Positions 4,888 through 36,200 of a stretch of DNA of 39,185 nucleotides are shown here, piece after piece. Positions within the stretch are counted from its first letter, which is position 1. Every line of letters begins with the position of its first letter. The stretch spans positions 1-39,185 of the forward strand of contig JAYUIW010000078.1 of NCBI GenBank assembly GCA_043765655.1, written 5' to 3'. The notes under the pieces are model-generated. The model searched no databases, had not been told where the DNA came from, and saw only the letters and a list, made by a program, of their open reading frames with translations. The translations under genes and the position numbers were made by a program. The stretch is from a bacterium (lineage in GTDB: Bacteria; Patescibacteriota; JACMRA01).

Positions 4888-6957
4888 TTATTGTAATTTT
4901 TTGAGGGTTGCTAATAATTCTTCTTTAACTTTTTTGATTCTGAGTTGGAATTCTCCAGTTGTATTTTTTTCTAATTTATTTAACATTTCTAAAGTATTGC
5001 TATAAAATCTATAGCTGTCTTTACTCCAAAACTTAGGCTTGGGAACATATGCCAAAAAATCTTTCAATTTGTATTCTGTTTCCAGACTTGGTTGTAACAA
5101 ATATCTAATTAGAATTCTATTTATTATTTCTCCATTTATAATTTTTCCAAAGCCATCAAAAACTTCAGATAATATTTTTTCTATTTTTATTAATTCTTGG
5201 TCAATATTTTCTAGATTTTTTTCTAAATTTGGTACTTTTGAATTAATTTTTGTTTGAATATTTGTTCTATAGTTATTATATTTTGTATATTTATCAAAAA
5301 TATTTTGCAATATATCAATTTCTTTTATATCAAAGCTATCTTTATCAAAACTGCTACCACCAATTGATTTAACAGTTCTTTTAAAATTTTCGATATACTG
5401 AATACCTTCTATGTCTTTTGGTTTGTCTTTATTGGAATTTTTAGCAATATTTAAGTTATTCATATTGTCTAAAGTTACTGGAACAATTATATCAAAACAA
5501 TTAACATTGTCTACCATTGATACCTTATATGCAACCCTACAATTACCATTCGATATCGATTCTGCAATGCATTTGGTTTCTTCAATAGTTAAGTTTAGAT
5601 CTGGAGAGACTATTAATGGAAGAGTAAAATCTTGCTCTAAATTTTTAATGTATGCCTGAATTTCGGACCGGAGTTGATTGAATTCAATTTTAGAATTTTT
5701 AGTGTCATAGTTTTTTTCCATAGCAATTGGCTGATTAAGCTCAGACATAAAATCCAAATTTCTACCTTTGATATGTTCTAGCAAGACATCTGAATTGCCA
5801 CTCTCAACTGCAAAGTATCGATAACCAGTACATGATCTAATTATACCGTTATATATTTCATTAAATTTAGTTGCACAGAACAAAATACTCCATTTATTAT
5901 TATCTTTATCTTCAATATTTTGGATTGCAATGGAATTGATTCCATAAAACGATTCTATAATTTTTAATTGAGATCCTTCTATCGCTTCGTTAATATGTTT
6001 TGGAATTATTTCTTTTGGGAAGCTGTTACACATATATTTTCCTGTGAATCGTGTTGAAATACTGGTTCCATCTTTTCCAGTTGCTAAATCTACCCCCGTT
6101 CTGAACTCATACACAGTTGCTTTAACCATTTCGTGAGATTCTAAAGTTATAGGAGCTTCTGGTTGAGCATTTGGAGTTGATGGTATGACAATGGGTGTGT
6201 GGTACTCATTATTTCTAGCAATCTGATCTCTAATACTATGAATACTGTCCTTACCAAAACGTTGCTCTAGTGATTCCATGATTGGGGTGCTTTGACAAAA
6301 AGTTTGAACAAAATGCTCGTTAGGAGGAGTATCGCCTCTCAAAAAACTTATAACCCAGCTTGGAATTTGTACATTTATTTTCTCCTTTGATGAAATGTTG
6401 TTACCGCTATTATCCATTGAATCAAAATCACGATTGTTGGTTGATTGCGAAGGTTGATAGGGGAGTTCTTGTTCTTCCAAGGATTGAATTTGTTGTTCTA
6501 GATTTTGTAATTCTGCTCTTCTTGTTTGCAAAGTATTCCAAGTAGGATCTATACTTTTGTTTTTGTATTCTATATAGGCTTCTTTGTTTGCCCATGCTTC
6601 TTCAAGGCTTGTAATTTGTTTTTGGAGAGTAGATTTTTTGTTTTGCAAAATCTTTGGATACATTTGTTCCAAGGTAGAACGCCCAAAATTACTATTGGAA
6701 GATAATTGATTGTCAGCTGGTCTGTATTGATTAAAATAATCTGTAACAGAATTATAGCCTTGTGAGTGCATGTTTAGATGCAACCATTCCAAGTCTTCAC
6801 CTCTTATTGTTCCTGTTGTCAAACCTATACACAAATCTGGAATTTTTGGGTCAGTACCTACAACAAAACCACTCTTTTCAACGACTTCTGCTGAAGATAT
6901 TTCTTGGGAACTTATTCTATAGTATTTTTTGAGAATGATTGTATTTTTGAATTGCAT
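4888..6957 (-). CDS. orphan 689-aa protein, coiled-coil-rich, no recognisable domain
   Basis: Long intact ORF with its own promoter. No signal peptide, TM segment, nucleotide-binding or nuclease motif that I can recognise. Q/E-rich coiled-coil stretches around aa 100-170 and 560-620. Confidence 0.7.
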   Translation of the reverse strand: MQFKNTIILKKYYRISSQEISSAEVVEKSGFVVGTDPKIPDLCIGLTTGTIRGEDLEWLHLNMHSQGYNSVTDYFNQYRPADNQLSSNSNFGRSTLEQMYPKILQNKKSTLQKQITSLEEAWANKEAYIEYKNKSIDPTWNTLQTRRAELQNLEQQIQSLEEQELPYQPSQSTNNRDFDSMDNSGNNISSKEKINVQIPSWVISFLRGDTPPNEHFVQTFCQSTPIMESLEQRFGKDSIHSIRDQIARNNEYHTPIVIPSTPNAQPEAPITLESHEMVKATVYEFRTGVDLATGKDGTSISTRFTGKYMCNSFPKEIIPKHINEAIEGSQLKIIESFYGINSIAIQNIEDKDNNKWSILFCATKFNEIYNGIIRSCTGYRYFAVESGNSDVLLEHIKGRNLDFMSELNQPIAMEKNYDTKNSKIEFNQLRSEIQAYIKNLEQDFTLPLIVSPDLNLTIEETKCIAESISNGNCRVAYKVSMVDNVNCFDIIVPVTLDNMNNLNIAKNSNKDKPKDIEGIQYIENFKRTVKSIGGSSFDKDSFDIKEIDILQNIFDKYTKYNNYRTNIQTKINSKVPNLEKNLENIDQELIKIEKILSEVFDGFGKIINGEIINRILIRYLLQPSLETEYKLKDFLAYVPKPKFWSKDSYRFYSNTLEMLNKLEKNTTGEFQLRIKKVKEELLATLKKLQ

Positions 6958-7085: not shown

Positions 7086-7568
7086 TTAGGACTTGAACCG
7101 CACATCCATTAGACCACACATTGCAATTGCCAAGGCATCGGCGGCATCATCTGGACCGTTTATCTTATCAATTTTGTACAGTTTTTTGACCATTGTTTGG
7201 ATTTGTTTTTTGTCGGCTCTACCGTAATTACAGATAGATTTTTTGACTTGAAGTGGAGTTATATTTTTGACTTGTATATTATTCTTAGCTAGATGGGCTA
7301 CGATTGCCCCACGACTTTGAGCTACATCAATAACTGTCTTGGCATTTTTGAAGAAAAAGAGATCTTCTACAATCGCGAATGTTGGTTGGTATTTTTGGAT
7401 CAAAATATCAAGGTCGCTAATTATCTCGGCAATTCTCCGCTCTTGTTCGCCGTCAGCTCGCTTGTCGGTAGTTATAACTCCATAATCAATTATAACTGGA
7501 TTAGACAATGTACCTTCCACAAAGGCAAATCCGATAATATTAATCCCTGGGTCAATTCCTAGTAGCAT
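7086..7568 (-). CDS. ruvC: crossover junction endodeoxyribonuclease RuvC
   Basis: MLLGIDPG..IGFAFVEG, AIVEDLFFFKN, AQSRGAIV, ITPLQVKKSICNYGRADKKQIQ, DDAADALAIAMC. Start moved to ATG 7568 (the track extension 7569-7622 is hydrophobic junk). Confidence 0.9.
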   Translation of the reverse strand: MLLGIDPGINIIGFAFVEGTLSNPVIIDYGVITTDKRADGEQERRIAEIISDLDILIQKYQPTFAIVEDLFFFKNAKTVIDVAQSRGAIVAHLAKNNIQVKNITPLQVKKSICNYGRADKKQIQTMVKKLYKIDKINGPDDAADALAIAMCGLMDVRFKS

Positions 7569-7572
7569 AAAG

Positions 7573-8043
7573 TTAAATATCAAAACAGTAAGTTTGATCA
7601 AGTTTATGAGTAAAATAATCATTCAAGATTGTATCAGTGTGCTCTAAATTCAAAAAATTAACTAATTTATGTATAAAATATGGACCTTCATGCCAAGTTC
7701 CAGCTTCAATTTTAATAATACAGTTAGAAGGAATCTCAAAAGCTTCAATTTTGGATAAATCTGGGCTACTTAAATCATTATTTGGAGGGCAAACAGCTAA
7801 AATCCAGTTTTTATTGTCCATTGAACCAAGGCATTGCGAACAATTTATATGACGACTTATTTTGTTAAAACTTAAACCATGCTCTTCTAATTGCATTATA
7901 TACAGTCTAGGTTCTCCTCTTTTGATGTCTAGGTTAAGATCTAAGTCTTCACTAAATGGTCTGCGATTATCGCAGGGATAGATAACTTCTCCAAATTCCT
8001 TAAAGTTTTCGGGTGATATTAATATTGGTTTTAATTTGATCAT
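7573..8043 (-). CDS. ureidoglycolate lyase/hydrolase (AllA)-like cupin protein
   Basis: Pattern matches the AllA family: PENFKEFGEVI, a LEEHGLSFNKISRH stretch (H-containing strand), AFEIP....IKIEAGTWHEGPYF. Family level only; the substrate is uncertain. Confidence 0.5.
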   Translation of the reverse strand: MIKLKPILISPENFKEFGEVIYPCDNRRPFSEDLDLNLDIKRGEPRLYIMQLEEHGLSFNKISRHINCSQCLGSMDNKNWILAVCPPNNDLSSPDLSKIEAFEIPSNCIIKIEAGTWHEGPYFIHKLVNFLNLEHTDTILNDYFTHKLDQTYCFDI

Positions 8044-8070
8044 AAATATTATACATTTATTTTTATAATG

Positions 8071-8151
8071 AACTTTTTATATCCTGAAATGAATTTAGGA
8101 TGACACGGTAAGGGTCATAGCTTGCACAACAGGGGATTCTTCGCGATGCTC
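8071..8151. repeat. palindromic intergenic element, family B copy 1
   Basis: ATCCTGAAATGAATTTAGGATGACA hairpin, then ..GATTCTTCGCGATGCTCAGAATGACAGC. GC-rich island in AT-rich spacer. Confidence 0.55.
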
Positions 8152-8179
8152 AGAATGACAGCATTTATGGAGACTTTTT

Positions 8180-9169
8180 TTATATCCCCATCAGTAACGT
8201 AAAAATTGCCATTCTAACATAAAGTCCATTCTTAGCTTGCTTGAAATATAGTGCACGAGGATCATTGTCTAATTCTGGATGAATCTCGGGATAAGCTACC
8301 GAGTTAATTGGTAGTGGATGCATAATTTTGGCTTTGGAGTCACCCATTGTTTTGAAGTCTAATTGATATACTCCATCCTTGTAGAGTTCTTTGTCTTCGT
8401 CGCTCATTCGCTCAATCTGAGGTCTACAGCAATACACAACATCTACTTTTTGAACAATATCTGCAAGATCCTTAATATCCCGAGCGTTGTATTCTATACC
8501 TGCGCTTTCCAGCTCCTCTTTAGCGTGTAACGAATCTGGTGCCACGAAGATCATCTTGGTGCCGAATTGGTTGAGAACCTTAGCCAGAGACTTGATAGTT
8601 CTGCCATATTTCATATCGCCAACGAAAGCTACAGTGATTTTATCCAAGTCTTCGAAGTTTTCTTTGATAGTAAAGAGATCCAACATCGCCTGCGTAGGAT
8701 GCTCATTAGAACCGTCACCACAATTCACCCACGATATATCGTCGTACTTGAGACAAGCGTAGTGTGGAAGATAAGTCTCAGGAGTGCGAAGTGTGATAAA
8801 GTCAGGCTGATAACCCGCGAACATTTGTAGAGTATGCTCGATAGTTTCACCTTTGGCAATAGATGTTGAGCCTGCCCCATCCATAGTGATAACTGTTCCG
8901 CCGAGTCTTGTCCATGCGGTTTCGGTGCTGAATCTGGTGCGAGTAGAATTAGAGAAGAATAACGAATACATTAACTTGCCTTTGGCGAGCTTGTTATACT
9001 TGATTGGGTTGGACTTGATGTTGCCAGATCTGGTCATAATGTGTCCCATTGCCTGCAGATCCAGCTGTTCCACGGATACGAAGGAGGAGTTTTTGAAGGC
9101 TCTTTTGCCATTGATTGCAGGAAGTTGTTCCTTGGTGATGACAGTGTTAGGTGTAAAAAAAGTAGACAT
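8180..9169 (-). CDS. pyrB: aspartate carbamoyltransferase catalytic subunit
   Basis: STRTRFSTE, KGETIEHT, HPTQAMLD, VGDMKYGRT, QIERM, IMHPLP, FKQAKNGLYVRMAI. The HPLP motif (not HCLP) favours ATCase over OTCase. Confidence 0.85.
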   Translation of the reverse strand: MSTFFTPNTVITKEQLPAINGKRAFKNSSFVSVEQLDLQAMGHIMTRSGNIKSNPIKYNKLAKGKLMYSLFFSNSTRTRFSTETAWTRLGGTVITMDGAGSTSIAKGETIEHTLQMFAGYQPDFITLRTPETYLPHYACLKYDDISWVNCGDGSNEHPTQAMLDLFTIKENFEDLDKITVAFVGDMKYGRTIKSLAKVLNQFGTKMIFVAPDSLHAKEELESAGIEYNARDIKDLADIVQKVDVVYCCRPQIERMSDEDKELYKDGVYQLDFKTMGDSKAKIMHPLPINSVAYPEIHPELDNDPRALYFKQAKNGLYVRMAIFTLLMGI

Positions 9170-9268
9170 ATTAACCTTAATAATGAATTACAATGATACT
9201 ATTGTCAAAGAATTATCTCTGAACTAAGTCTTAAAGCCTCAATCAAACTAAATTAATATAAGTTCTAG

Positions 9269-9299
9269 TTGACAAAATGCAACAAAGTTGCAATAATAT
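9269..9299 (+). promoter_or_regulatory. promoter of the Fur-family gene with embedded 6-3-6 palindrome TGCAAC-AAA-GTTGCA (9278-9292)
   Basis: TTGACA 9269-9274, AT-rich -10 (AATAAT/TAATAT, 9292-9299). A perfect inverted repeat fills the spacer. Confidence 0.5.
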
Positions 9300-9324
9300 T
9301 AGCAAGCCTCAATCTCATACAATT

Positions 9325-9699
9325 ATGAAAACTGAACCACTCATTCAACAGCTCATTAACAACGGACATTCTCCAATTAATTTTGAACAGATTGCAACCT
9401 TCCTAGAATCCCAAAATCTCAAACCCAACAAAACCACAATCTACAGGAATCTGGAAAAATTGGAAAAAGATGGATTAATCAAAAAGGTTATTCTCTCAGA
9501 CCAAAAACAATTCTGGGAAGTGGTTCATTATAATTCAAAAACTCATCAAGATCACCAACATTATCATCTTATCTGCAATAGTTGCACCAATATAGAATGC
9601 CAAGAACTCCCGAGAATTATCCTTCCAAAGCTTAACTTCAACGTTCAAAGGATGGAGATTAATCTTTTTGGACTATGCAACAATTGCCAACTGAACTAG
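9325..9699 (+). CDS. Fur-family metalloregulator (Zur-like by context)
   Basis: Winged-helix segment NKTTIYRNLEKLEKDGLIKKV, H-rich HQDHQHYHLIC, and CxxC pairs (CNSC ... CNNC). Start placed at ATG 9325, because track start 9277 lies inside the promoter. Confidence 0.8.
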   Translation: MKTEPLIQQLINNGHSPINFEQIATFLESQNLKPNKTTIYRNLEKLEKDGLIKKVILSDQKQFWEVVHYNSKTHQDHQHYHLICNSCTNIECQELPRIILPKLNFNVQRMEINLFGLCNNCQLN

Positions 9700-9768
9700 A
9701 ACTGTTTTTAAAAATTTTAAGTAGTGAAACTTCATATTTAGACTATAAAATTTAATAATTACCTTTTT

Positions 9769-9796
9769 AGATCCTGAAATAAATTCAGGATGACAG
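9769..9796. repeat. palindromic intergenic element, family B copy 2 (minimal form)
   Basis: AGATCCTGAA-ATAAA-TTCAGGATGACA, perfect 8-bp stem. Confidence 0.55.
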
Positions 9797-9840
9797 TTTA
9801 AAATATATTTTAGACTTTTTGCAACCAAATCAATAATTTT

Positions 9841-10626
9841 ATGCTTAACTCCACAATCATTCTCGCCTCTCTCCTTGTCAGCCTTGTTTCCTTAGTTGGA
9901 ATTATCTCTCTACCGCTCAAAATTGTAAAATTCGCCAAATACTTTGTAGCCATTGCTACTGGAGCTTTACTTGGAGATGTTTTTTTTCACATTCTGCCAG
10001 AGATTGTAGATATTCCTGGAATTTCGATTGACAATGTTTTTCTGTTCACACTTCTTGGAATTGGTGCAATGTTTATCTTCGAGAGTATCTTTAGGCATAT
10101 TCACTGCCACGAACAACTAAAACATAACCATCACGAAAGCCATAATTATTCGCACGACAATCTTACCCAGAAATCAAACAATCCTCTTGGAACTATGAAC
10201 TTGATTGGGAATACGCTCCATAATTTTTTGGATGGAGTATTGATTGCAAGTAGCTTTATCGTTAATCCTGTGGCTGGCTGGGCGACGACCTTGGCGATTA
10301 TTGCCCACGAGATTCCCATCGAGATGAGTAATTTTGCATTATTGATTCATTCAGGATTTAGTCGCCAAAAAGCTCTAATCTACAATGGATTAACTGCCAT
10401 CTTTGGACTATTTGGATCTTTGACTGTGATATTCTTTGGGCAAATTCTCAATGAGCAACTACCTTATCTCAGTGCATTCGGAGCTGGATTCCTACTGTAT
10501 ATCGCTATGTCAGATCTAATTCCCGAAATTCACACCAACCATTCTCGCAAGCCTAACTATCTTAACTTTATACTCATCATTCTAGCAATTCTCCTGATGT
10601 ACTGGCTCAAAACCATCGAAAGTTAA
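9841..10626 (+). CDS. ZIP-family divalent metal (zinc) transporter
   Basis: Multi-pass membrane protein with a His-rich loop (HCHEQLKHNHHESHNYSHD) and ZIP signature helices HNFLDGVLIA and HEIPIEMSNFALL. Confidence 0.85.
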   Translation: MLNSTIILASLLVSLVSLVGIISLPLKIVKFAKYFVAIATGALLGDVFFHILPEIVDIPGISIDNVFLFTLLGIGAMFIFESIFRHIHCHEQLKHNHHESHNYSHDNLTQKSNNPLGTMNLIGNTLHNFLDGVLIASSFIVNPVAGWATTLAIIAHEIPIEMSNFALLIHSGFSRQKALIYNGLTAIFGLFGSLTVIFFGQILNEQLPYLSAFGAGFLLYIAMSDLIPEIHTNHSRKPNYLNFILIILAILLMYWLKTIES

Positions 10627-10942: not shown

Positions 10943-11827
10943 ATGCTGACAAAAACACCTCAAAACAAATATCCCACAATAACTCTAGAACTAGGTGACC
11001 AAAAAACCACTCTAGAGCTCGGAACTTTAATATTAAGATTATCTGATCTTGGACTTCGTAACTTCCAACTAACCAACAAAGCCAAAACCTGTAACAACTC
11101 TCAACTTTTTGGGGAACTTTGTAAGTTTTTAAATACTAAAAATCCTGAATTATTACAATACATCAACTGGACTTTGACTTATTCTCTGGGCAATAACTAC
11201 AATGGTGGAATCAGAACCATGGAACTATTCCAAGAATATTGTGATAATATCCAAAGCCTTTGTAAGAGTTGTAAACTTAGACTTCAACCTTCAATTCTCA
11301 TAGTTAGCGGTTCCACGCAACGCAAAGTTAATAGTTTGACTATTCTTGAGGAGCAAAAAGTTAATGCAAACTTATTTTTGAAAGATAAAAAAAATAGCAA
11401 CCAATTCGGCGTTGCCTTCAATCCTTTTTTGAGTGACCAAAATCTCGATATGGAAAAAACTAGATTGTATAAAAAGCTAAAAACTGGTAAAGTTAATACA
11501 GTCTATATCCAAATCGGCACCAATCTAGAACTACTTCAATCTGGACTTGAGTATATTCGATCTATTAATACTAGTGTCAAAATAATTATCTGTGTACTTT
11601 TGCCATCCCAGAACCTGCTCAATACTTGGAATTTTAGACCTTGGCGAGGAGTTTTTTTGGGCTCTGAATTCCTTGGAGATCTTAAAACAGCACTGGACAT
11701 TTCTAACAATGTTATCCAATTCTGCAACCACAACAACCTTGAGATCCTTCTGACCGTAATGGATTGGAAGCATTTTTTTGACCAAAATCAGTTTTTTGAA
11801 TTAGAATTAAAGAATAATGACTCTTAA
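10943..11827 (+). CDS. hypothetical protein with weak methylenetetrahydrofolate-reductase-like pattern
   Basis: Start set at ATG 10943, just after the DUF1653 stop. ILIVSGSTQRK, FGVAFNPF...DMEKTRLYKKLKTGKVNTVYIQ loosely resemble MetF/MTHFR barrel motifs. This is weak. Confidence 0.3.
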   Translation: MLTKTPQNKYPTITLELGDQKTTLELGTLILRLSDLGLRNFQLTNKAKTCNNSQLFGELCKFLNTKNPELLQYINWTLTYSLGNNYNGGIRTMELFQEYCDNIQSLCKSCKLRLQPSILIVSGSTQRKVNSLTILEEQKVNANLFLKDKKNSNQFGVAFNPFLSDQNLDMEKTRLYKKLKTGKVNTVYIQIGTNLELLQSGLEYIRSINTSVKIIICVLLPSQNLLNTWNFRPWRGVFLGSEFLGDLKTALDISNNVIQFCNHNNLEILLTVMDWKHFFDQNQFFELELKNNDS

Positions 11828-12872
11828 TTTTTTGATTATTCTGATCTCTCTCTTCTTTGTTTCGCACTGGTTCGGTACGATTAATATTCTACTAAGCTTG
11901 GTTTTTGATTTGGTTGATAAGCCTGATGGCGACCGCAAACTCCAAAAAAGCCCTGTTCCCCTAGCTGGAATTACCTTAAGTTTATTACTAGCCACTGCCG
12001 TGTCTACCAGTTTATTCTTTGAGAATGAGTTTTGGGGTAGGCTCAATATAATTTCTAACCTAGAACTTACCAAGAATATCGACAATCCTGTGAATTGGTG
12101 GTGGGTAGTCGCTGGAATTATAATCATACTAATTGGTGGATTAATTGATGACAAAAATAACCTCAAATCTTGGCAACTAGCAATTCCTATTAACGTCGGA
12201 CTACTGGCAATTGTCTTTGGTGGAAATCTGCGAATTGAAGCCTTGAGTTATCCATTCGATACTATAATTCCAAGTTTTGGTTTTTTGCATCAGTTTTTGG
12301 CATGGGTCTGGCTGGGACTATGTCTAGCCACCACTAAGTTCCTCGATGGACATGATGGCTTGGTCTCTAGCGTTGGAATAATTAACTTTATGGTTATTGC
12401 TTTTATGGCTTTTTTGCCAAGTATTAATCAGCCTTTGATTTGGTCGATTTGTCTTGTCTGGATTGCCTGTATTGCAGGCTTTTTGCCGTATAATCTTCCC
12501 AATGCCCAGTCCTACATCGGCGAAGGAGCTTCGGAATTAATCGGGCTAATGATCGGCATCCTCTCCATTCTTTCCGGTGCCAAACTCGCCACAAGCTTCA
12601 GCATCGTTGGCTGGTTCTTATTGGATTTAATGCTAGTACTCTTTATTAGGTATAAGAATGGCAAAAATATATTGCAAGCTGGTCGTGAACATTGGCATTT
12701 TAGGCTACTAGATTACGGATTCTCCAAGTGGCAAGTATTGATAATGAGTATAATTCTAATTAGTTTCACAGGCTTTTTTGGAGCGGTTCTCCCAACGGTT
12801 TACAAGCCGATTATTATCTTGTTCGAACTAGTCATTCTCCTTGGTATATTCAAGGTTACTAGCAGAAAGTAA
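11817..12872 (+). CDS. MraY/WecA-family polyprenyl-phosphate sugar-1-phosphate transferase (glycosyltransferase family 4)
   Basis: About 10 TM segments, GGLIDDKNNL (DD motif) and KFLDGHDGL (NxxDGxDGL-type motif). Overlaps the upstream ORF by 11 nt. Confidence 0.8.
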   Translation: MTLNFLIILISLFFVSHWFGTINILLSLVFDLVDKPDGDRKLQKSPVPLAGITLSLLLATAVSTSLFFENEFWGRLNIISNLELTKNIDNPVNWWWVVAGIIIILIGGLIDDKNNLKSWQLAIPINVGLLAIVFGGNLRIEALSYPFDTIIPSFGFLHQFLAWVWLGLCLATTKFLDGHDGLVSSVGIINFMVIAFMAFLPSINQPLIWSICLVWIACIAGFLPYNLPNAQSYIGEGASELIGLMIGILSILSGAKLATSFSIVGWFLLDLMLVLFIRYKNGKNILQAGREHWHFRLLDYGFSKWQVLIMSIILISFTGFFGAVLPTVYKPIIILFELVILLGIFKVTSRK

Positions 12873-12876
12873 TGAT

Positions 12877-12905
12877 TTGACATTAGCCAAAAAGTAGTGT
12901 ATAAT
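12877..12905 (+). promoter_or_regulatory. consensus promoter; spacer nearly identical to the cassette-array promoters
   Basis: TTGACA (12877-12882), spacer TTAGCCAAAAAGTAGTG (17 nt), TATAAT (12900-12905), 4 nt before ATG 12910. Confidence 0.6.
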
Positions 12906-12909
12906 ACTA

Positions 12910-13725
12910 ATGTTTAAAAATCGCAATTATTTTATTTTTATGCCAAATCTACAAGAAAACAACACTCAAGGAATAGAAAGCCCATCCAGAAGAAAATTTT
13001 TAATAAATTCAGCACTTGGAGCACTTGCTAGCGAAACTATCTCTAATCTACAAGCCACAGCAAAAATTTCCGCTCAAAAAAACCAGGTACAAACTAATTC
13101 TAGATCATTTCCAGAAAACAATCTAATATCCCTTGAAGCTGTAAATGTAGCCAAGGAAGCTAGAAAACTTGGTATGGTTAGAGCAAAAGATGTTATACCT
13201 AATGTTCTTCAACGAACTGCATACGCTAGAGATGATAACTTTACTAACGAACAAATGTATGAATCTGACACATCAATTTGGGGTAAAAAAGAAACTTTAC
13301 TCAAGATTGGTAAGGTTGATTCAGCTCTCAGACAGTATGGTCTTAGATTAATTTTGGTTGATATGTATAGACCTCAATCAGTTGCTAATGAATTTGGTAA
13401 AATCGCCAAATAGCGTGGAATTGATCCAAAGTATGTTGCTCAATCTACAGACTCTCAAGGAAATATTAGAACAGGTCATACCAGCGGTCATGTTGTAGAT
13501 GTAATGTTAGCTAACTTAGACGGCACACCTGCAGAAACTCCAACTAATTTTGATGGATTCCCAAAATCTGGACTTGAAAGAGAGGATGGAAATATACCTG
13601 ATTGGAAAGATTTTTCAAACTGGAGCGAAGAAGCAAAGAACAATGTCACTTACCTAAAAAGAGAAATGAAAAACCAAGGAGGTAAACAGATTGACACTGA
13701 ATGGTGGCATTGGAGTTTTGGATAA
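12910..13725 (+). pseudogene. VanX/DdpX-type D-Ala-D-Ala dipeptidase (M15) with twin-arginine signal, interrupted by in-frame TAG at 13411-13413
   Basis: SRRKFLINSALGALA matches a Tat motif. ARDDNFTN, VDMYRPQSV, then TAG; the same frame continues RGIDPKYVAQS...GHTSGHVVDV (H..D zinc ligands) and EWWHWSF. Confidence 0.7.
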
Positions 13726-24478: not shown

Positions 24479-25282
24479 ATGAATCAAAAACTTAATTTTA
24501 GACAATTTTTATCACTTTTCATATTTTTGGTAATAACTCTTCAAGTCCTTGGGCTATTCATTACCGACATTGTCAAGGTCAACGAGCGTCAAGTTGCCGT
24601 AATTTCACGTTTTGGCAAAGTTATCGACACCAAGACTGCAGGATGGCATCTCAAAATTCCGTATGTAGACAGTGTTGCAGCGATTTATGACAGTGCAGTT
24701 CAATCCGTCAGCGCAGAAGCTGCTTGTGCAACTCGTGACCAACAGTCAATTAAGGTTCTAGTTAATGTTCAATTCCGTCTTGATCCAACCAAAGCTCTCG
24801 ATCTGTTCAGGACAGTCAAAGATCAGGAATATCTCAACGATTCTATTATTCCACCGATAATCCAAGAAACAATCAAGTCCCAAACTGCTAAGTTTTCTGC
24901 AGTTGAGTTGTTAGAAAAACGTGACATTCTCAAGGTCAATACCGAAAATGCCCTCAACGAAAAGCTCAAGGAATATTTTAGCTCCATAGCCAGTGTCAAT
25001 ATTGCTAATATCGATTTTTCTGATCAGTTCGATAAGGCAATTGAACAAAAAGTAATTGCAGAGCAACAAGTTGAGCAAAAAAAACAAGAACTGGAACAAG
25101 AAAAACTAAAAGCTCAAATCAGAATTACTGAAGCTGAAGGAATCGCCAAATCCACCGAAATTACAGGAAAAGCTCTCAAAGAAAATCCAGAAACCATCGA
25201 GCAATCCAAAGTCAACAAATGGGACGGCAAGCTTCCACAAGTCTCTGGCTCTAATTCCATAATTAATTTGGACAAAAAGTAG
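24479..25282 (+). CDS. SPFH/Band-7 (prohibitin/HflC-like) membrane protein
   Basis: N-terminal TM segment, then VNERQVAVISRFGKV...GWHLKIPYVDSV and a C-terminal E/K/Q coiled coil. Confidence 0.8.
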   Translation: MNQKLNFRQFLSLFIFLVITLQVLGLFITDIVKVNERQVAVISRFGKVIDTKTAGWHLKIPYVDSVAAIYDSAVQSVSAEAACATRDQQSIKVLVNVQFRLDPTKALDLFRTVKDQEYLNDSIIPPIIQETIKSQTAKFSAVELLEKRDILKVNTENALNEKLKEYFSSIASVNIANIDFSDQFDKAIEQKVIAEQQVEQKKQELEQEKLKAQIRITEAEGIAKSTEITGKALKENPETIEQSKVNKWDGKLPQVSGSNSIINLDKK

Positions 25283-25311
25283 AAAACTACAAAGATAAAA
25301 TTAAACTTCTT

Positions 25312-25352
25312 AAAACAAAAACCACCCTATTAATTTAAGGTGGAATTTTTTT
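25312..25352. terminator. bidirectional terminator
   Basis: CCACC-CTATTAATTTAA-GGTGG, flanked by an A-run (25312-25321) and a T-run (25346-25352). Confidence 0.6.
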
Positions 25353-25374
25353 AGAATTTTTGGGCAAGAAAAAG

Positions 25375-25607
25375 AGGTTTCACACCCCTTGAAAACAAAA
25401 TAAATGAGTTGAAACCTTCCCTGTTCAGTTAATTAAATGTATTTTGGAAATTAGATATAGTTAATAATTATTAGTTATTATTATAATTCTAATGTTAAGA
25501 CTGTAAGGAGTTTATTCGGAGAATTATTGTTAACGTTACTATTTTTTTTACTTGTTACAACTATTCTCGGGTTATTTAGGAACTAATGCTCCGAACTAAT
25601 TCGTTAC
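25375..25607 (-). ncRNA. candidate ~230-290-nt small RNA (unknown class)
   Basis: Perfect consensus promoter at 25614-25642. No ATG at all on this strand between the predicted TSS and the AGGTTTCA...TGAAACCT hairpin plus CTTTTTCTT (about 25375-25425). Internal long-range pairing TTCGGAG/CTCCGAA. Confidence 0.45.
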
Positions 25608-25613
25608 TTTAAT

Positions 25614-25642
25614 ATTATACACAATATTTTTTTGGTTGTCAA
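25614..25642 (-). promoter_or_regulatory. orphan perfect-consensus promoter
   Basis: TTGACA (25642-25637), exactly 17 nt, TATAAT (25619-25614). It lies downstream of the zwf stop and points into ORF-free DNA. Confidence 0.6.
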
Positions 25643-25659
25643 ATGTTATTACAACTTTA

Positions 25660-26904
25660 TTAGTTTAAAATAATTTTATTAATAATATTCCAACCTTCAA
25701 TAACCTCATCATAATCAACAAAATAAGCATATTGATTATTAATTAAATCTTCAAAAACATTAGTATGATCGAGATTATTCTTTTTTGTAAAATTGATTTT
25801 TTTTGTAAAATTTTGAATATTTATGTTATCAAAAAAGTTTTTATTATCACATATAATTAATGATTCAGGTTGGATTTGCCAATTTATATTTTGGATATTA
25901 CTAGAATTAGTTTCAAAATCTATCTCAATATCTGTTATTTTTTGTATTTGTTTTTTGCCAGATTCTAACTCTACAATTATTATCTTGGAGCGATCCTGTC
26001 CAATAAGTTCAATTTTTATAACAACCTCAAAATATGTCTCAGTCTTAGATCCTGAGATTCCAATATCCACATCATAACCTTCGTACTGCGAGGTTTTTTG
26101 GTTAATTAACTCAACATTGCCAATCCTTACCGTTCCACACAAATTCTTGAGCGTCAACTTCAACAAAGAATACAAATGAACCAACATATCACGCCTAGCT
26201 CCAATCGTGTCGTAATAACCACCACGGCCTTCGACACCTAAAGTTTCTAGAATTCTAATTTTTATTTTTTTTAGATTTTGAATATCACAAAACTCATTAT
26301 TATTAAACTTTTCCAAAGCTTCTCCAAAATTAATACGCGTTGAGTTTTTGAACAGATAATGATCGATGAATCGAACACGGTTTTGGATTTTGCACTTTTT
26401 AATTATATTTATAATCCTTAATGCTTCTTGTTTGTTTTCTCCGAAGGGTTTTTCGATTAGAACATCAATCTTCTGGGAACCAAATTGACAAGAACTTTCA
26501 ATAAAATCTTTATAGACACTAGGTGGAACAGCCAGGTACACAATTAATCTATCTTGAGGTCGCAATTCACTAACCAGATTATGATAAACCTCAAAATTGT
26601 CGTATTGCCCTTGTTCCAGGATTATTTTGGGCAAATTACACTCGTCTTGATTCGTATATTCACGAATTTGATCAATATCAGCCTTAGATCTAGAGTAGCC
26701 AATTAATTCTATCTCATAATTATCTTTGCAAAAGGCTGTGAACTGACCAACTGCAGGTAAGATTTTGAGCTGTGCTAGATTGCCAGTAATTCCTAGAACT
26801 AGGAACTTAATTTTAGGTTTTTGGTTAATATTGATATTAGAATTATTTATATTATTTGTATTATGCATTGCCATTAGATTAATTGTTACTAAATTATGAC
26901 TCAT
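25660..26904 (-). CDS. zwf: glucose-6-phosphate 1-dehydrogenase (divergent)
   Basis: VLGITGNLAQLKILPAV (NADP site), YLAVPPSVY, EKPFGEN, IDHYLFK, GVEGRGGYYDTIGARRDM. The true start may be Met11 or Met13 (MAMHNT). Confidence 0.75.
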   Translation of the reverse strand: MSHNLVTINLMAMHNTNNINNSNININQKPKIKFLVLGITGNLAQLKILPAVGQFTAFCKDNYEIELIGYSRSKADIDQIREYTNQDECNLPKIILEQGQYDNFEVYHNLVSELRPQDRLIVYLAVPPSVYKDFIESSCQFGSQKIDVLIEKPFGENKQEALRIINIIKKCKIQNRVRFIDHYLFKNSTRINFGEALEKFNNNEFCDIQNLKKIKIRILETLGVEGRGGYYDTIGARRDMLVHLYSLLKLTLKNLCGTVRIGNVELINQKTSQYEGYDVDIGISGSKTETYFEVVIKIELIGQDRSKIIIVELESGKKQIQKITDIEIDFETNSSNIQNINWQIQPESLIICDNKNFFDNINIQNFTKKINFTKKNNLDHTNVFEDLINNQYAYFVDYDEVIEGWNIINKIILN

Positions 26905-27085
26905 TTAGAATCTAGTTGTCAATTCTGTTTTTTTGGAACAATAACTAATCTTGTTAACTTTAACCCAAAAAAATAAAGAATATTACCCAAATATTACCCA
27001 AAAAATAAAATATAACCATAGTTCAAATTTTGTTGAAAATAGAGCAATAATGCAAGATTTGGAAGTCAAAATTCAAAATTAATAC

Positions 27086-33197: not shown

Positions 33198-33226
33198 TTG
33201 ACAATTGTGCTTACAAAGCATAAAAT
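33198..33226 (+). promoter_or_regulatory. ileS promoter (near-leaderless)
   Basis: TTGACA (33198-33203), 17 nt, TAAAAT (33221-33226), 8 nt before ATG 33235. Confidence 0.6.
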
Positions 33227-33234
33227 TAAAAGAT

Positions 33235-36200
33235 ATGCTCAACACCGAATTAGATGTCCTCAACTACTGGAAAGACAACAAAACCTTTGCCAAATCAATC
33301 GCCAACCGCAAATCCTCACCTGAATTTGTTTTTTTTGATGGTCCGCCATTCGCAACTGGTCTGCCACATTGGGGACACATCCTAGTAAGTCAGCTCAAAG
33401 ACACCGTTCTACGCTACCAAACCCAAAAAGGCTTCTATGTTCCACGCAACTGGGGCTGGGATTGTCACGGAGCTCCGATCGAAGTTTTGGCAGAAAAAAA
33501 ATTAGAGATTACAGACAAAAGACAGATCGAAGGTGAAATCGGAATCACCAAATTCAACGAATACTGCCGTTCCACCGTGATGATGTACGATACCGAGTGG
33601 CGTAAGACGATCGAAAGAATCGGTCGCTGGGTGGATATGGATAGTCAATACCGTACGATGGATAATGACTTTATGGAGTCGGTCTGGTGGGGGTTGGGAA
33701 GATTATGGGACAAAAACCTCATCTACAAAGACTACCGAACCAGTATGTACTCGCCTAGTGTCGGAGTTCCGCTCACACACACGGACGTTGCAATGGAAGT
33801 CAAGTACGACAACGAAACCATAGAGACGCCTGTGGTAAGATTCACCCTAGACGGAGAATCCAGAATTAGTCTTATTGCCAAAATTACCTCCACAATTAAC
33901 GAAACAATTGACACACAAACCAAAATCAAAAAAGACCTAGAAAAAAGACTAGCCAGCCTCAATAATCCCGGAATCAAAAAAGTCAACAAAGACGAACTCG
34001 TCAAAAACTCTCTCAAAGTAGACGAAGGCGAACTCACCAAAGACAAAGCCAAAAATTCCCAAGACGACGAACAGTCTCATATCAGTAGCGAAATTAAGTT
34101 TTGTGATGAGAATATAGAATCTCTAGACAAACTCAACAAAATCTTCAAGGCAACTTATCCAATCAATATCCTAGCTTGGACTACTACACCCTGGTCTATT
34201 CCTGCTAATGTTGCCCTTGCAGTCAATCAAGACTTCGAGTATTCCCTATATCTCAACCCGACAACTAGTGAGATTATCGTACTTGCCGAGTCTACGGCTG
34301 TGGAGATTTTGAATAAGATTATTAATCCACTTCTATTAGCCAAAGCCTCCAAGATCGAGGGAAACTATGAAGATTCTAGTGATTATCTAGAAGCAATTGG
34401 CTCTGATATTCTCAAAATTGCCCAGCTCAAAGGCGAAGATCTAGTCGGTCTCAAATACACTCCACTATTCCAAATTAATGAAAACCACAGCGATCAAACA
34501 GGCTTTGAAAACGCGTTCAGTATAAACCACGGCGACTTTGTAACTTTAGAAGATGGAACTGGAGTGGTGCACATTGCTCCAGCATATGGCGAAGACGACT
34601 TTAACCTCCGCAAATCCTGCAATCTTCCTGTTCTGCACTCACTCAACGAACACGGCGAAATTCTAAGTACTCTTGATAAAGTTCTAGAGCCAGCCTTCTC
34701 CAAAAAATTCACATCTGTTAATCCAATAATTCTGGATATTCTGGAGTCAAAAAAAATCTTGTTCACTAAATTCAAACACACTCACAGAGTTCCAATCTAC
34801 GGACGCGATAACAAAAAAGTCTACTACTCTACTCAAGATGGTTGGTTTATCCGCGAAACTGCTTTGACAACAAAATCTGTAGAACTTAATCAAAAAATAA
34901 ACTGGTTCCCGCAATCACTCAATCAAAGATTCGAAAACGGTCTAGAAACCGCACCAGACTGGTGTATTAGTCGCAATCGTTACTGGGGAACTCCAATTCC
35001 AATTTGGCAAAATAGCTCTAAGGACAAAACAATCTTCATCGATAGCGTCGCCAAGCTCGAAGAATTCGCAGTTAATCCAGTGTTCAAGCTCATCAATTCC
35101 AAAGATCTGGACACTTCACTATATAAAGACGGTAATACAATCATAATGACTGATTCTAGTATCAAGCTTCCTCTTGGAATCGCCGCCGCTCATAACAAGT
35201 CCAAGAATATTTTTAATCTGCATCAATCTGGGCTCACCGATATGGCATCTATTGCTCCGATTTGCCAAGCTATCCTAGAAGAAGTCTTAGAGTTATTCGC
35301 CAAATACCAAAATGTTCAAATTATTCTGGAAGAAAACGAACAAAAACTCTGGACGACTTGGATGATGGGACTACACGAAAACTCAACCAAAAATGTCTCT
35401 AAATTCTATTTTTATCAAGAAGTAAAGCAAGATCAAAATCTAAAAAACTTCGAAGTAGTCGGTGGAATCAAGCCTCTAGATCTGCATCGTCCGTTCATTG
35501 ACGAGATTATTTTACAGGACCAAAACGGCGAAGTCTACACTAGAATTCATGAAGTTCTGGATTGTTGGGTCGAGTCTGGCTCAATGCCTCACGCCTCGGT
35601 TCATTATCCGTTCGAATCAGAGTATGTCTCCAAAATGAAAAATCTAAAATCGGCTGACTGGATTGCCGAGGCTCAAGACCAAACACGAGGTTGGTTCAGG
35701 GCTTTGCATGTTATTAGTAACGGAGTTTTCGGAGATATCGCCTTCAAGAATATCAATTGTACTGGGCTAATTATGGCTTCCGATGGTCAAAAAATGTCCA
35801 AATCCAAAGGCAACTACACAGATCCTAATATCTTGTTGGACAAATTCGGAGCGGATGCAGTGAGATTATATATCTTGTCATCGGTGGTTGTGAACGGCGA
35901 GGCCTTGAGCTTTTCGGATCGGAACTTGGAGATTGTCTTTAGAGAGAATACTCTATTATTAAGTAATTCGATTAGTTTTATCAAGCAAGTTCTATCGCAG
36001 TTTTATCCCAAAAAATCTGAAACCAAATCTTACAAACACCCTCTCAACAAGTGGTGGCAAGCCCAAACTCAGCAATTAGTTAACGAGTTCATCGCGGCAA
36101 TGGATCAATACGATATTGCAACTGCAGGACGGTTAATTCCGCCATATATCAACAACTTCTCGACTTGGTACATCCGCAGATCCAAAGATCTCTTGGAAGA

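Follow-up and report, generated by a model that had tools for sequence, protein, structure and literature searches.

The analysed DNA, further referred to as the window, is 39185 bp long and represents contig 78 of a 1.05-Mb metagenome-assembled genome with a G+C content of 35%, derived from an uncultivated, small-genome, Patescibacteria-like bacterium. Two genes of the window, zwf and a gene for an SPFH/Band-7 protein, are oriented convergently and separated by a spacer of 377 bp (25283-25659). The zwf frame ends with a TAA stop codon at 25662-25660 and its homologues align up to residue ~411 of 414. The median spacer of convergent gene pairs in this genome is 63 bp, and the zwf/SPFH spacer corresponds to about the 88th percentile when a crude gene call is used. 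At the opposite end of zwf, the listed ATG (26904) falls within a promoter-like sequence, TTGACA-18-CATAAT (26922-26893, in the region 26868-26922 of the window). Public gene calls begin 12 codons further in (402 aa) and the homology starts from residue ~27-30; the true start of zwf is therefore probably located downstream of 26893. The spacer itself contains a perfect promoter and two terminator-like hairpins on the minus strand (Table 1).

Table 1. Genes and sequence features of the zwf/SPFH spacer and other promoter units of the genome. Positions refer to the window, except those preceded by a contig number (C20, contig 20, etc.).
Feature	Position	Strand	Characteristics
zwf	25660-26904	-	glucose-6-phosphate dehydrogenase; Pfam G6PD_N and G6PD_C domains
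SPFH/Band-7 gene	24479-25282	+	Pfam Band_7, E = 6.6e-33; convergent with zwf, bounds the spacer
Perfect sigma-70-type promoter	25642-25614	-	direct reading and scan; context TGTGTATAAT
-35 hexamer TTGACA	25642-25637	-	separated from the -10 by a 17-nt A-rich spacer
-10 hexamer TATAAT	25619-25614	-	separated from the -35 by a 17-nt A-rich spacer
5' structured domain	25500..25608	-	predicted; 109 nt, 31 base pairs, 5' end pairs with nt ~100
Weaker promoter-like site CTTACA-16-TATAAT	25507-25480	-	10 of 12 positions
Linker	25418..25499	-	AT-rich, weakly structured, z = -1.2
T1, first terminator-like hairpin	25366..25417	-	AGGTTTCA (25417-25410), N27, TGAAACCT (25382-25375), then CTTTTTCTT
T2, second, stronger terminator	25312..25343	-	CCACCTTAAATTAATAGGGTGG (CCACC..GGTGG), then TTTTTGTTTT; -12.2 kcal/mol, z = -2.1
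Other perfect promoters of the window	12877, 22808, 27350	+	each precedes an ORF
Five tiny promoter-to-terminator units	C20:5350, C38:7273, C39:6361, C64:10310, C56:5907	-, +, -, -, -	perfect promoter, no ORF
Contig 55 unit	C55:4357-4930	+	perfect promoter, ~570 nt of very AT-rich ORF-free DNA, then ORF 4931-5908

The orphan promoter and the promoters of the genome

The promoter TTGACA-17-TATAAT on the minus strand had been pointed out in an earlier reading of the window made without database searches (the sequence-only reading), and both direct reading and a scan placed it at the same coordinates. It lies just past the end of zwf as had been described, with 17 nt between the TAA codon and the -35 hexamer. 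The claim that it was the sole perfect promoter without a gene holds for the window, since the other three of the four perfect promoters each precede an ORF. One of them, at 12877, follows the stop codon of ORF 11817-12872 at a distance of 5 nt, and the location of a promoter right behind the stop of the preceding gene is normal in this genome.

The search of the whole 1.05-Mb genome for perfect TTGACA-N(16-18)-TATAAT sites revealed 50 of them versus 2.5 expected from the base composition, an approximately 20-fold excess. The hexamers were separated by 17 nt in 38 cases and by 18 nt in 12, and no 16-nt spacer was found. About 40 of the 50 sites, as roughly counted, were located directly upstream of an ORF of at least 50 aa or a tRNA gene; two promoters drive tRNA-Cys and tRNA-Leu. 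At 12 of the 50 sites a long ORF has its ATG only 4-8 nt past the -10 hexamer, which indicates leaderless mRNAs, and translation looks largely leaderless genome-wide (e.g., at 12877-12913 and 33198-33237 of the window). Many further perfect promoters are followed by leaders of 11-60 nt in which no Shine-Dalgarno sequence is obvious.

The context of the orphan promoter outside the hexamers was scored with a matrix built from the other perfect promoters with a 17-nt spacer. It reached 4.1 bits in comparison with a leave-one-out mean of 1.9 +/- 5.6 bits for the other promoters and -9.0 +/- 6.2 bits for random genomic windows, only 1.4% of which scored as high. The ratio of 50 observed to 2.5 expected sites translates into a prior of ~5% that any single perfect site is due to chance. 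The orphan promoter is almost certainly not a chance occurrence, and the promoter statistics of the genome itself make its activity in the cell highly likely. The start of transcription was predicted at ~25608-25607 (G25607 or A25608), ~7 nt past the -10 hexamer, because the leaderless genes have their ATG 4-8 nt past this element.

The genome has other orphan perfect promoters. Five of them form tiny units, in which a hairpin with a T-run is reached after only ~45-60 nt. The units from contigs 20 and 39 are located in the short spacer of two plus-strand genes and fire backwards onto the terminator of the upstream gene, and those from contigs 38 and 39 have the motif TTGGCAnTAGnCACG in common. 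The five units gave no match in Rfam and could represent tiny sRNAs, transcription roadblocks or empty cassettes. The ORF-free stretch of contig 55 contains two similar G+C-richer blocks, …GATCGCTGGGTAATCAGAGGC… and …GGTCGCAGGGTTATCAGCCAC…, and is a second candidate for a long non-coding RNA; it gave no match in Rfam. A search of Rfam with 13 other orphan or long-leader promoter regions also gave nothing. The perfect promoter C27:7855(+) is oriented antisense inside a gene of 1159 aa (7111-10590, minus strand) and is either a chance site or a promoter of an antisense RNA. Behind the perfect promoter C18:26954(-), a hydrophobic ORF of 36 codons (MTYFDYLFSWSLGLGSIAVITGMIWYYLIIKGNIPS) begins 10 nt past the -10 hexamer and probably encodes an unannotated small membrane protein with a near-leaderless mRNA.

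Predicted transcript and its coding potential

An RNA initiated at the predicted start would be ~240 nt long if ended at T1 and ~290 nt if T1 were read through to T2. Its 5' structured domain, the boundaries of which were picked after folding, was predicted to adopt a closed and branched fold with an MFE of -19.5 kcal/mol (z = -3.48), which 0 of 200 shuffles equalled, and such a z value was reached by just 0.6% of 170 random intergenic 109-nt windows of the genome. The absolute MFE is ordinary, corresponding to the 17th percentile of GC-matched intergenic windows, many of which are hairpin repeats. The folding signal of the domain is suggestive only. A 7-bp pairing TTCGGAG/CTCCGAA highlighted in the sequence-only reading is part of this fold, but taken alone it stays at about the chance level; by our own estimate, a few such pairings are expected within ~300 nt. 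The domain can also be described as an imperfect palindrome of ~105 nt with imperfect inverted ends flanked by TA, and it is single-copy in the genome.

Both terminators had likewise been recognized from the sequence. The hairpin and T-run of T1 are present at the coordinates then given, together with an additional inner 7-bp hairpin (25390-25372) identified in the scan. T1 has a folding energy of -14.9 kcal/mol, no better than shuffles when taken alone. The CCACC..GGTGG stem of T2 with its T-run (25343-25312) could be read on both strands, and on the plus strand this bidirectional element would also serve as the terminator of the SPFH gene. The scan of the minus strand detected no terminator-like site between 25660 and 25391, leaving T1 as the first possible terminator for zwf. 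The zwf mRNA must therefore run through the whole unit, and the predicted RNA is co-linear with the zwf 3'UTR.

The minus strand of the spacer does not contain a single ATG, in agreement with what had been claimed for the transcribed strand, and is ORF-free under codes 11 and 25. With table 11, no ORF of at least 20 aa beginning with ATG, GTG or TTG was found on either strand of the spacer, and table 25 added just one TTG-initiated ORF of 34 aa on the plus strand. The longest ORF with one of these starts on the minus strand has 15 aa and overlaps T1, whereas near-cognate starts give at most 31 aa in an ORF crossing both terminators. No start codon is in frame at the predicted transcription start, where GUAACGAAUUAG is interrupted by a stop within four codons. 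Dinucleotide shuffles showed that a strand free of ATG is only mildly unusual (P = 0.017 for the spacer and 0.07 for the transcript).

Genetic code 25 was considered because zwf of a family member is labelled 'candidate division SR1', a group which reads TGA as glycine. No tRNA with a UCA anticodon was found in the genome and in-frame TGA accounts for 0.11% of codons in long frames, so the genome probably relies on the standard code (11), in which TGA would be a rarely used stop. A tblastn comparison of the spacer with zwf-flanking proteins of relatives and with the genome's own ORFs revealed no trace of a pseudogene (at most 23 bits). A protein-coding gene was rejected: the spacer has no plausible ORF, and neither proteins of relatives nor those of its own genome resemble it.

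RNA families, repeats and conservation

No Rfam 15 family was detected in the window at gathering thresholds. When the E-value limit was relaxed to 10, the region 25200-25750 gave just three hits, all on terminator hairpins and weak, with scores of 16-20 bits where the cut-offs are 60-100. This agrees with the sequence-only reading, in which no match to tmRNA, RNase P, SRP or 6S RNA had been seen. ARAGORN found no tRNA or tmRNA in the window, and the tmRNA gene of the genome is located on contig 53. A 6S RNA would be a rod of ~180-200 nt, paired end to end around a large central bubble and shared by relatives. In both the MFE and the centroid structure of 25607-25315 the first 105 nt pair among themselves and no end-to-end rod is formed, the RF00013 model found nothing in the genome, and the 5' domain was not found in relatives. 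SRP RNA was rejected as well, as the sequence lacks a GNRA-capped helix-8 motif and neither RF00169 nor RF01854 matched. A riboswitch or attenuator leader would require a gene next on the minus strand, but the following gene is the convergent SPFH gene, and no riboswitch model matches.

The search for the SRP in general gave a negative result. SRP RNA (RF00169, RF01854), PF02978 and PF00448 were not detected in 26 genomes of the family, including a one-contig genome of 1.3 Mb; PF00448 covers the SRP54-type GTPases, so the search gave no Ffh and no FtsY. Controls for the profile search were positive in 10-14 of 14. A motif scan found no protein with GxxGxGKTT and DTAGR in the genome, and PF02978, the Ffh M domain, was absent from all 61 genomes sampled across the phylum. 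This could be explained either by a very broad loss or by an insensitivity of the profile-search filter in this lineage. No report of SRP absence in this group was found in the literature.

The genome is unusually rich in repeats. An all-against-all BLAST revealed 268 segments present in at least 8 copies, with several hairpin/MITE-like families among them, and repeats of ~97 nt, the same ones at the starts or ends of many contigs, account for the fragmentation of the assembly. A MITE of the IS630 type would occur in multiple copies sharing terminal inverted repeats and a TA target duplication. This was rejected for the domain, as the spacer had a repeat coverage of 0 in this comparison and the covariance model built from the domain hit nothing but the domain itself. 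The TA flanks and the imperfect inverted ends suggest that it possibly originated from an old solitary MITE copy.

Features of regulatory RNAs were also sought. The 3'UTR-derived sRNAs of type I are marked by a conserved seed, base-pairing targets and an RNA chaperone (Hfq or ProQ). No conservation of the candidate was found. The BLAST-based comparison with 909 gene starts showed Watson-Crick complementarity no better than that of shuffled RNA, thus no targets were indicated. A six-frame scan of the genome, which is a crude test, detected no Hfq Sm2 motif.

BLAST of the spacer against 40 relatives, four of them from the same genus, and against its own genome returned only short AT-rich, promoter or terminator matches. 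The covariance model of the 5' domain gave only chance hits in 25 genomes of the family, the best one scoring 30 bits; the hits in relatives were rejected, since they had no promoter and fell fully or partly in ORFs, or else adjoined a tRNA-like 3' end. In metagenome contigs a loose pattern produced more than 120 chance hits and the model scored none among 80 loci. Phage and plasmid collections contained no match to the spacer.

The gene order around the spacer was compared among relatives. The identity of zwf within the genus is 42-47%, and among 5.8 billion proteins no homologue with an identity between 54% and 100% was found. Nine contigs of the same strain from other samples carry an identical zwf, and two places representing all nine are identical over 2.4 kb. 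In the two nearest zwf relatives (53-54% identity) the convergent gene is 90 bp away or overlapping, with no spacer of this kind. Other family members have zwf followed at 10-50 bp by mnmA, a gene for a DeoC-type aldolase or hypothetical genes, and in the same genus the gene after the SPFH orthologue (63% identity) is rpsG. Neither zwf nor SPFH synteny led to a counterpart of the spacer in relatives. Judged from these gene orders, the zwf/SPFH junction is unique to this species and rearranged. The literature search brought nothing on sRNAs or promoters in this group.

Interpretation and comparison with known systems

The orphan promoter and the ORF-free DNA behind it very probably make a non-coding RNA. 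The preferred reading, to which we assign a probability of roughly 0.5, is a unit of the functional-RNA type, non-coding, transcribed from its own promoter and lying within the zwf 3'UTR; its transcription, the start and end points and any role of the RNA are what we infer from the DNA. The unclassified sRNA proposed in the sequence-only reading was supported in part: the promoter, the ORF-free DNA, the terminators and the lack of an Rfam family stood up to the analysis, and the functional RNA remains putative. The candidate sRNA is credible and of an ordinary type, with a promoter, a terminator and no ORF.

According to this model, the unit would be strongly transcribed; RNA polymerase with the housekeeping sigma factor would initiate at ~25607 and transcribe first the self-closed structured domain of 109 nt and then the AT-rich single-stranded stretch. 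Transcription would stop at the first hairpin with its U-run (~240 nt) or at the bidirectional terminator used in common with the SPFH gene (~290 nt). Since zwf has no terminator of its own, the identical sequence would double as the tail of the zwf mRNA. In this model the product is most likely a young species-specific small RNA, the exposed AT-rich part of which could pair with other transcripts. The unit is probably either such an sRNA or a functionless by-product.

The latter would arise if the promoter, and perhaps the hairpin domain, were evolutionary debris left or brought by the rearrangement of the junction, transcribed and functionless. The loss of a small downstream gene or the decay of a solitary MITE-like palindrome could have led to this state. 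We regard this as the main alternative, less probable than the functional-RNA reading. The uniqueness of the junction, with zwf and SPFH orthologues having other neighbors and short spacers in relatives, is consistent with it, as is the abundance of mobile hairpin repeats in the genome (the 268 segments with at least 8 copies) and the TA-flanked, imperfectly inverted ends of the 5' domain. The other orphan perfect promoters, one antisense in the 1159-aa gene, five firing into a terminator and one followed by ~570 nt of ORF-free DNA, also fit, and neither conservation nor a predicted target was found. However, neither the proteins of relatives and of the genome nor its repeat families showed any remaining similarity to the spacer. 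In a genome of 1 Mb whose convergent genes lie 63 bp apart at the median, 300 bases without a use should have been lost, and the promoter is perfect at all 12 positions and has a good flanking context.

That the promoter is a silent chance match in AT-rich DNA, with the spacer being just a long zwf 3'UTR, is improbable. About 2.5 perfect sites are expected by composition and C27:7855(+), embedded antisense in a long gene, could be one of them, but the prior of ~5% per site set by the 50 observed sites speaks against it, as do the intergenic location, the 17-nt spacer and the promoter-like flanks. A role in cis, either as a stabilizing or regulatory tail of the zwf mRNA or through read-through of T1 and T2 antisense to the 3' end of the SPFH gene, seems somewhat less probable still. 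The spacer is part of the zwf mRNA with no terminator before T1, T1 is modest as a terminator and the SPFH gene lies directly past T2 on the opposite strand; a 3'UTR function, though, requires no promoter, tandem terminators speak against planned read-through and nothing is conserved beside zwf or SPFH in relatives. A very small protein, or one with a non-canonical start, is very unlikely, even if leaderless small ORFs behind perfect promoters do exist in the genome, as the 36-aa hydrophobic one at C18:26954(-) exemplifies. The strand has no ATG and no in-frame start at the predicted transcription start, the longest ORF with a canonical start is the 15-aa one overlapping T1 and near-cognate starts yield at most 31 aa through both terminators. 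The least probable explanation is a highly divergent housekeeping RNA, 6S-like or SRP, beyond Rfam recognition in this lineage. Neither RNA was detected in the genome and strong promoters are typical for them, but an RNA of this kind would be expected in relatives as well, and in 25 genomes of the family the covariance model yielded no credible hit. The fold is also not an end-to-end rod with a central bubble and shows no GNRA-capped helix-8 motif, and the SRP proteins are apparently absent from the family.

Within the functional-RNA reading, a more specific and rather unlikely scenario can be drawn, in which the unit is a newborn regulatory RNA. A solitary MITE-like palindrome behind zwf would have gained a consensus promoter or landed beside one, and the orphan promoters of the genome would represent an undescribed layer of small RNAs. 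This layer would comprise the zwf-side unit, the contig 55 unit of ~570 nt and the five tiny units, and it would belong to Patescibacteria-like bacteria, here with a genome that is devoid of Shine-Dalgarno sequences and largely leaderless. If this scenario were true, the RNA should be abundant and species-specific.

To our knowledge, almost nothing is known about non-coding RNAs of ultra-small uncultivated bacteria, and searches of such genomes with Rfam give very little. The promoters of this genome are close to the consensus and enriched over chance, so the sequence is sufficient to delineate transcription units and the orphan units become credible candidates. If the RNA from the zwf-side unit proved abundant, it would be among the first lineage-specific sRNAs here and an example of the birth of an RNA gene at a rearranged junction.

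The putative unit has something in common with two kinds of elements from the same genome. Like the hairpin MITEs of the IS630 type, it contains a TA-flanked imperfect palindrome of ~105 nt; unlike them, its 5' domain is single-copy with no similarity to a repeat family, and the promoter lies outside the palindrome. It resembles the five tiny units in having a perfect promoter without an ORF, aimed at the end of the neighboring gene and stopped by a hairpin and T-run. In contrast to these units of ~45-60 nt, it is 4-5 times longer, possesses a separate 5' domain and has no sequence in common with them.

Among systems described in other bacteria, the classic promoter-plus-terminator sRNA screens in E. 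coli and Bacillus relied on the same definition, an ORF-free intergenic stretch with a consensus promoter and an intrinsic terminator, and additionally demanded conservation in relatives. In enterobacteria, 3'UTR-derived sRNAs of type I are represented by DapZ, encoded behind dapB, and MicL, encoded within cutC; such RNAs have conserved seed regions, Hfq dependence and known targets. In the zwf-side unit no conservation, Hfq signature or predicted target was found, and its promoter is located past the stop codon and not inside the ORF. As in DapZ and MicL, the candidate has its own promoter, located at the end of the upstream gene or past it, and a terminator common with the mRNA, here at the sequence level only. 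It is also, like these two RNAs, co-linear with the 3' end of the mRNA, and its predicted length falls in the range of 80-300 nt.
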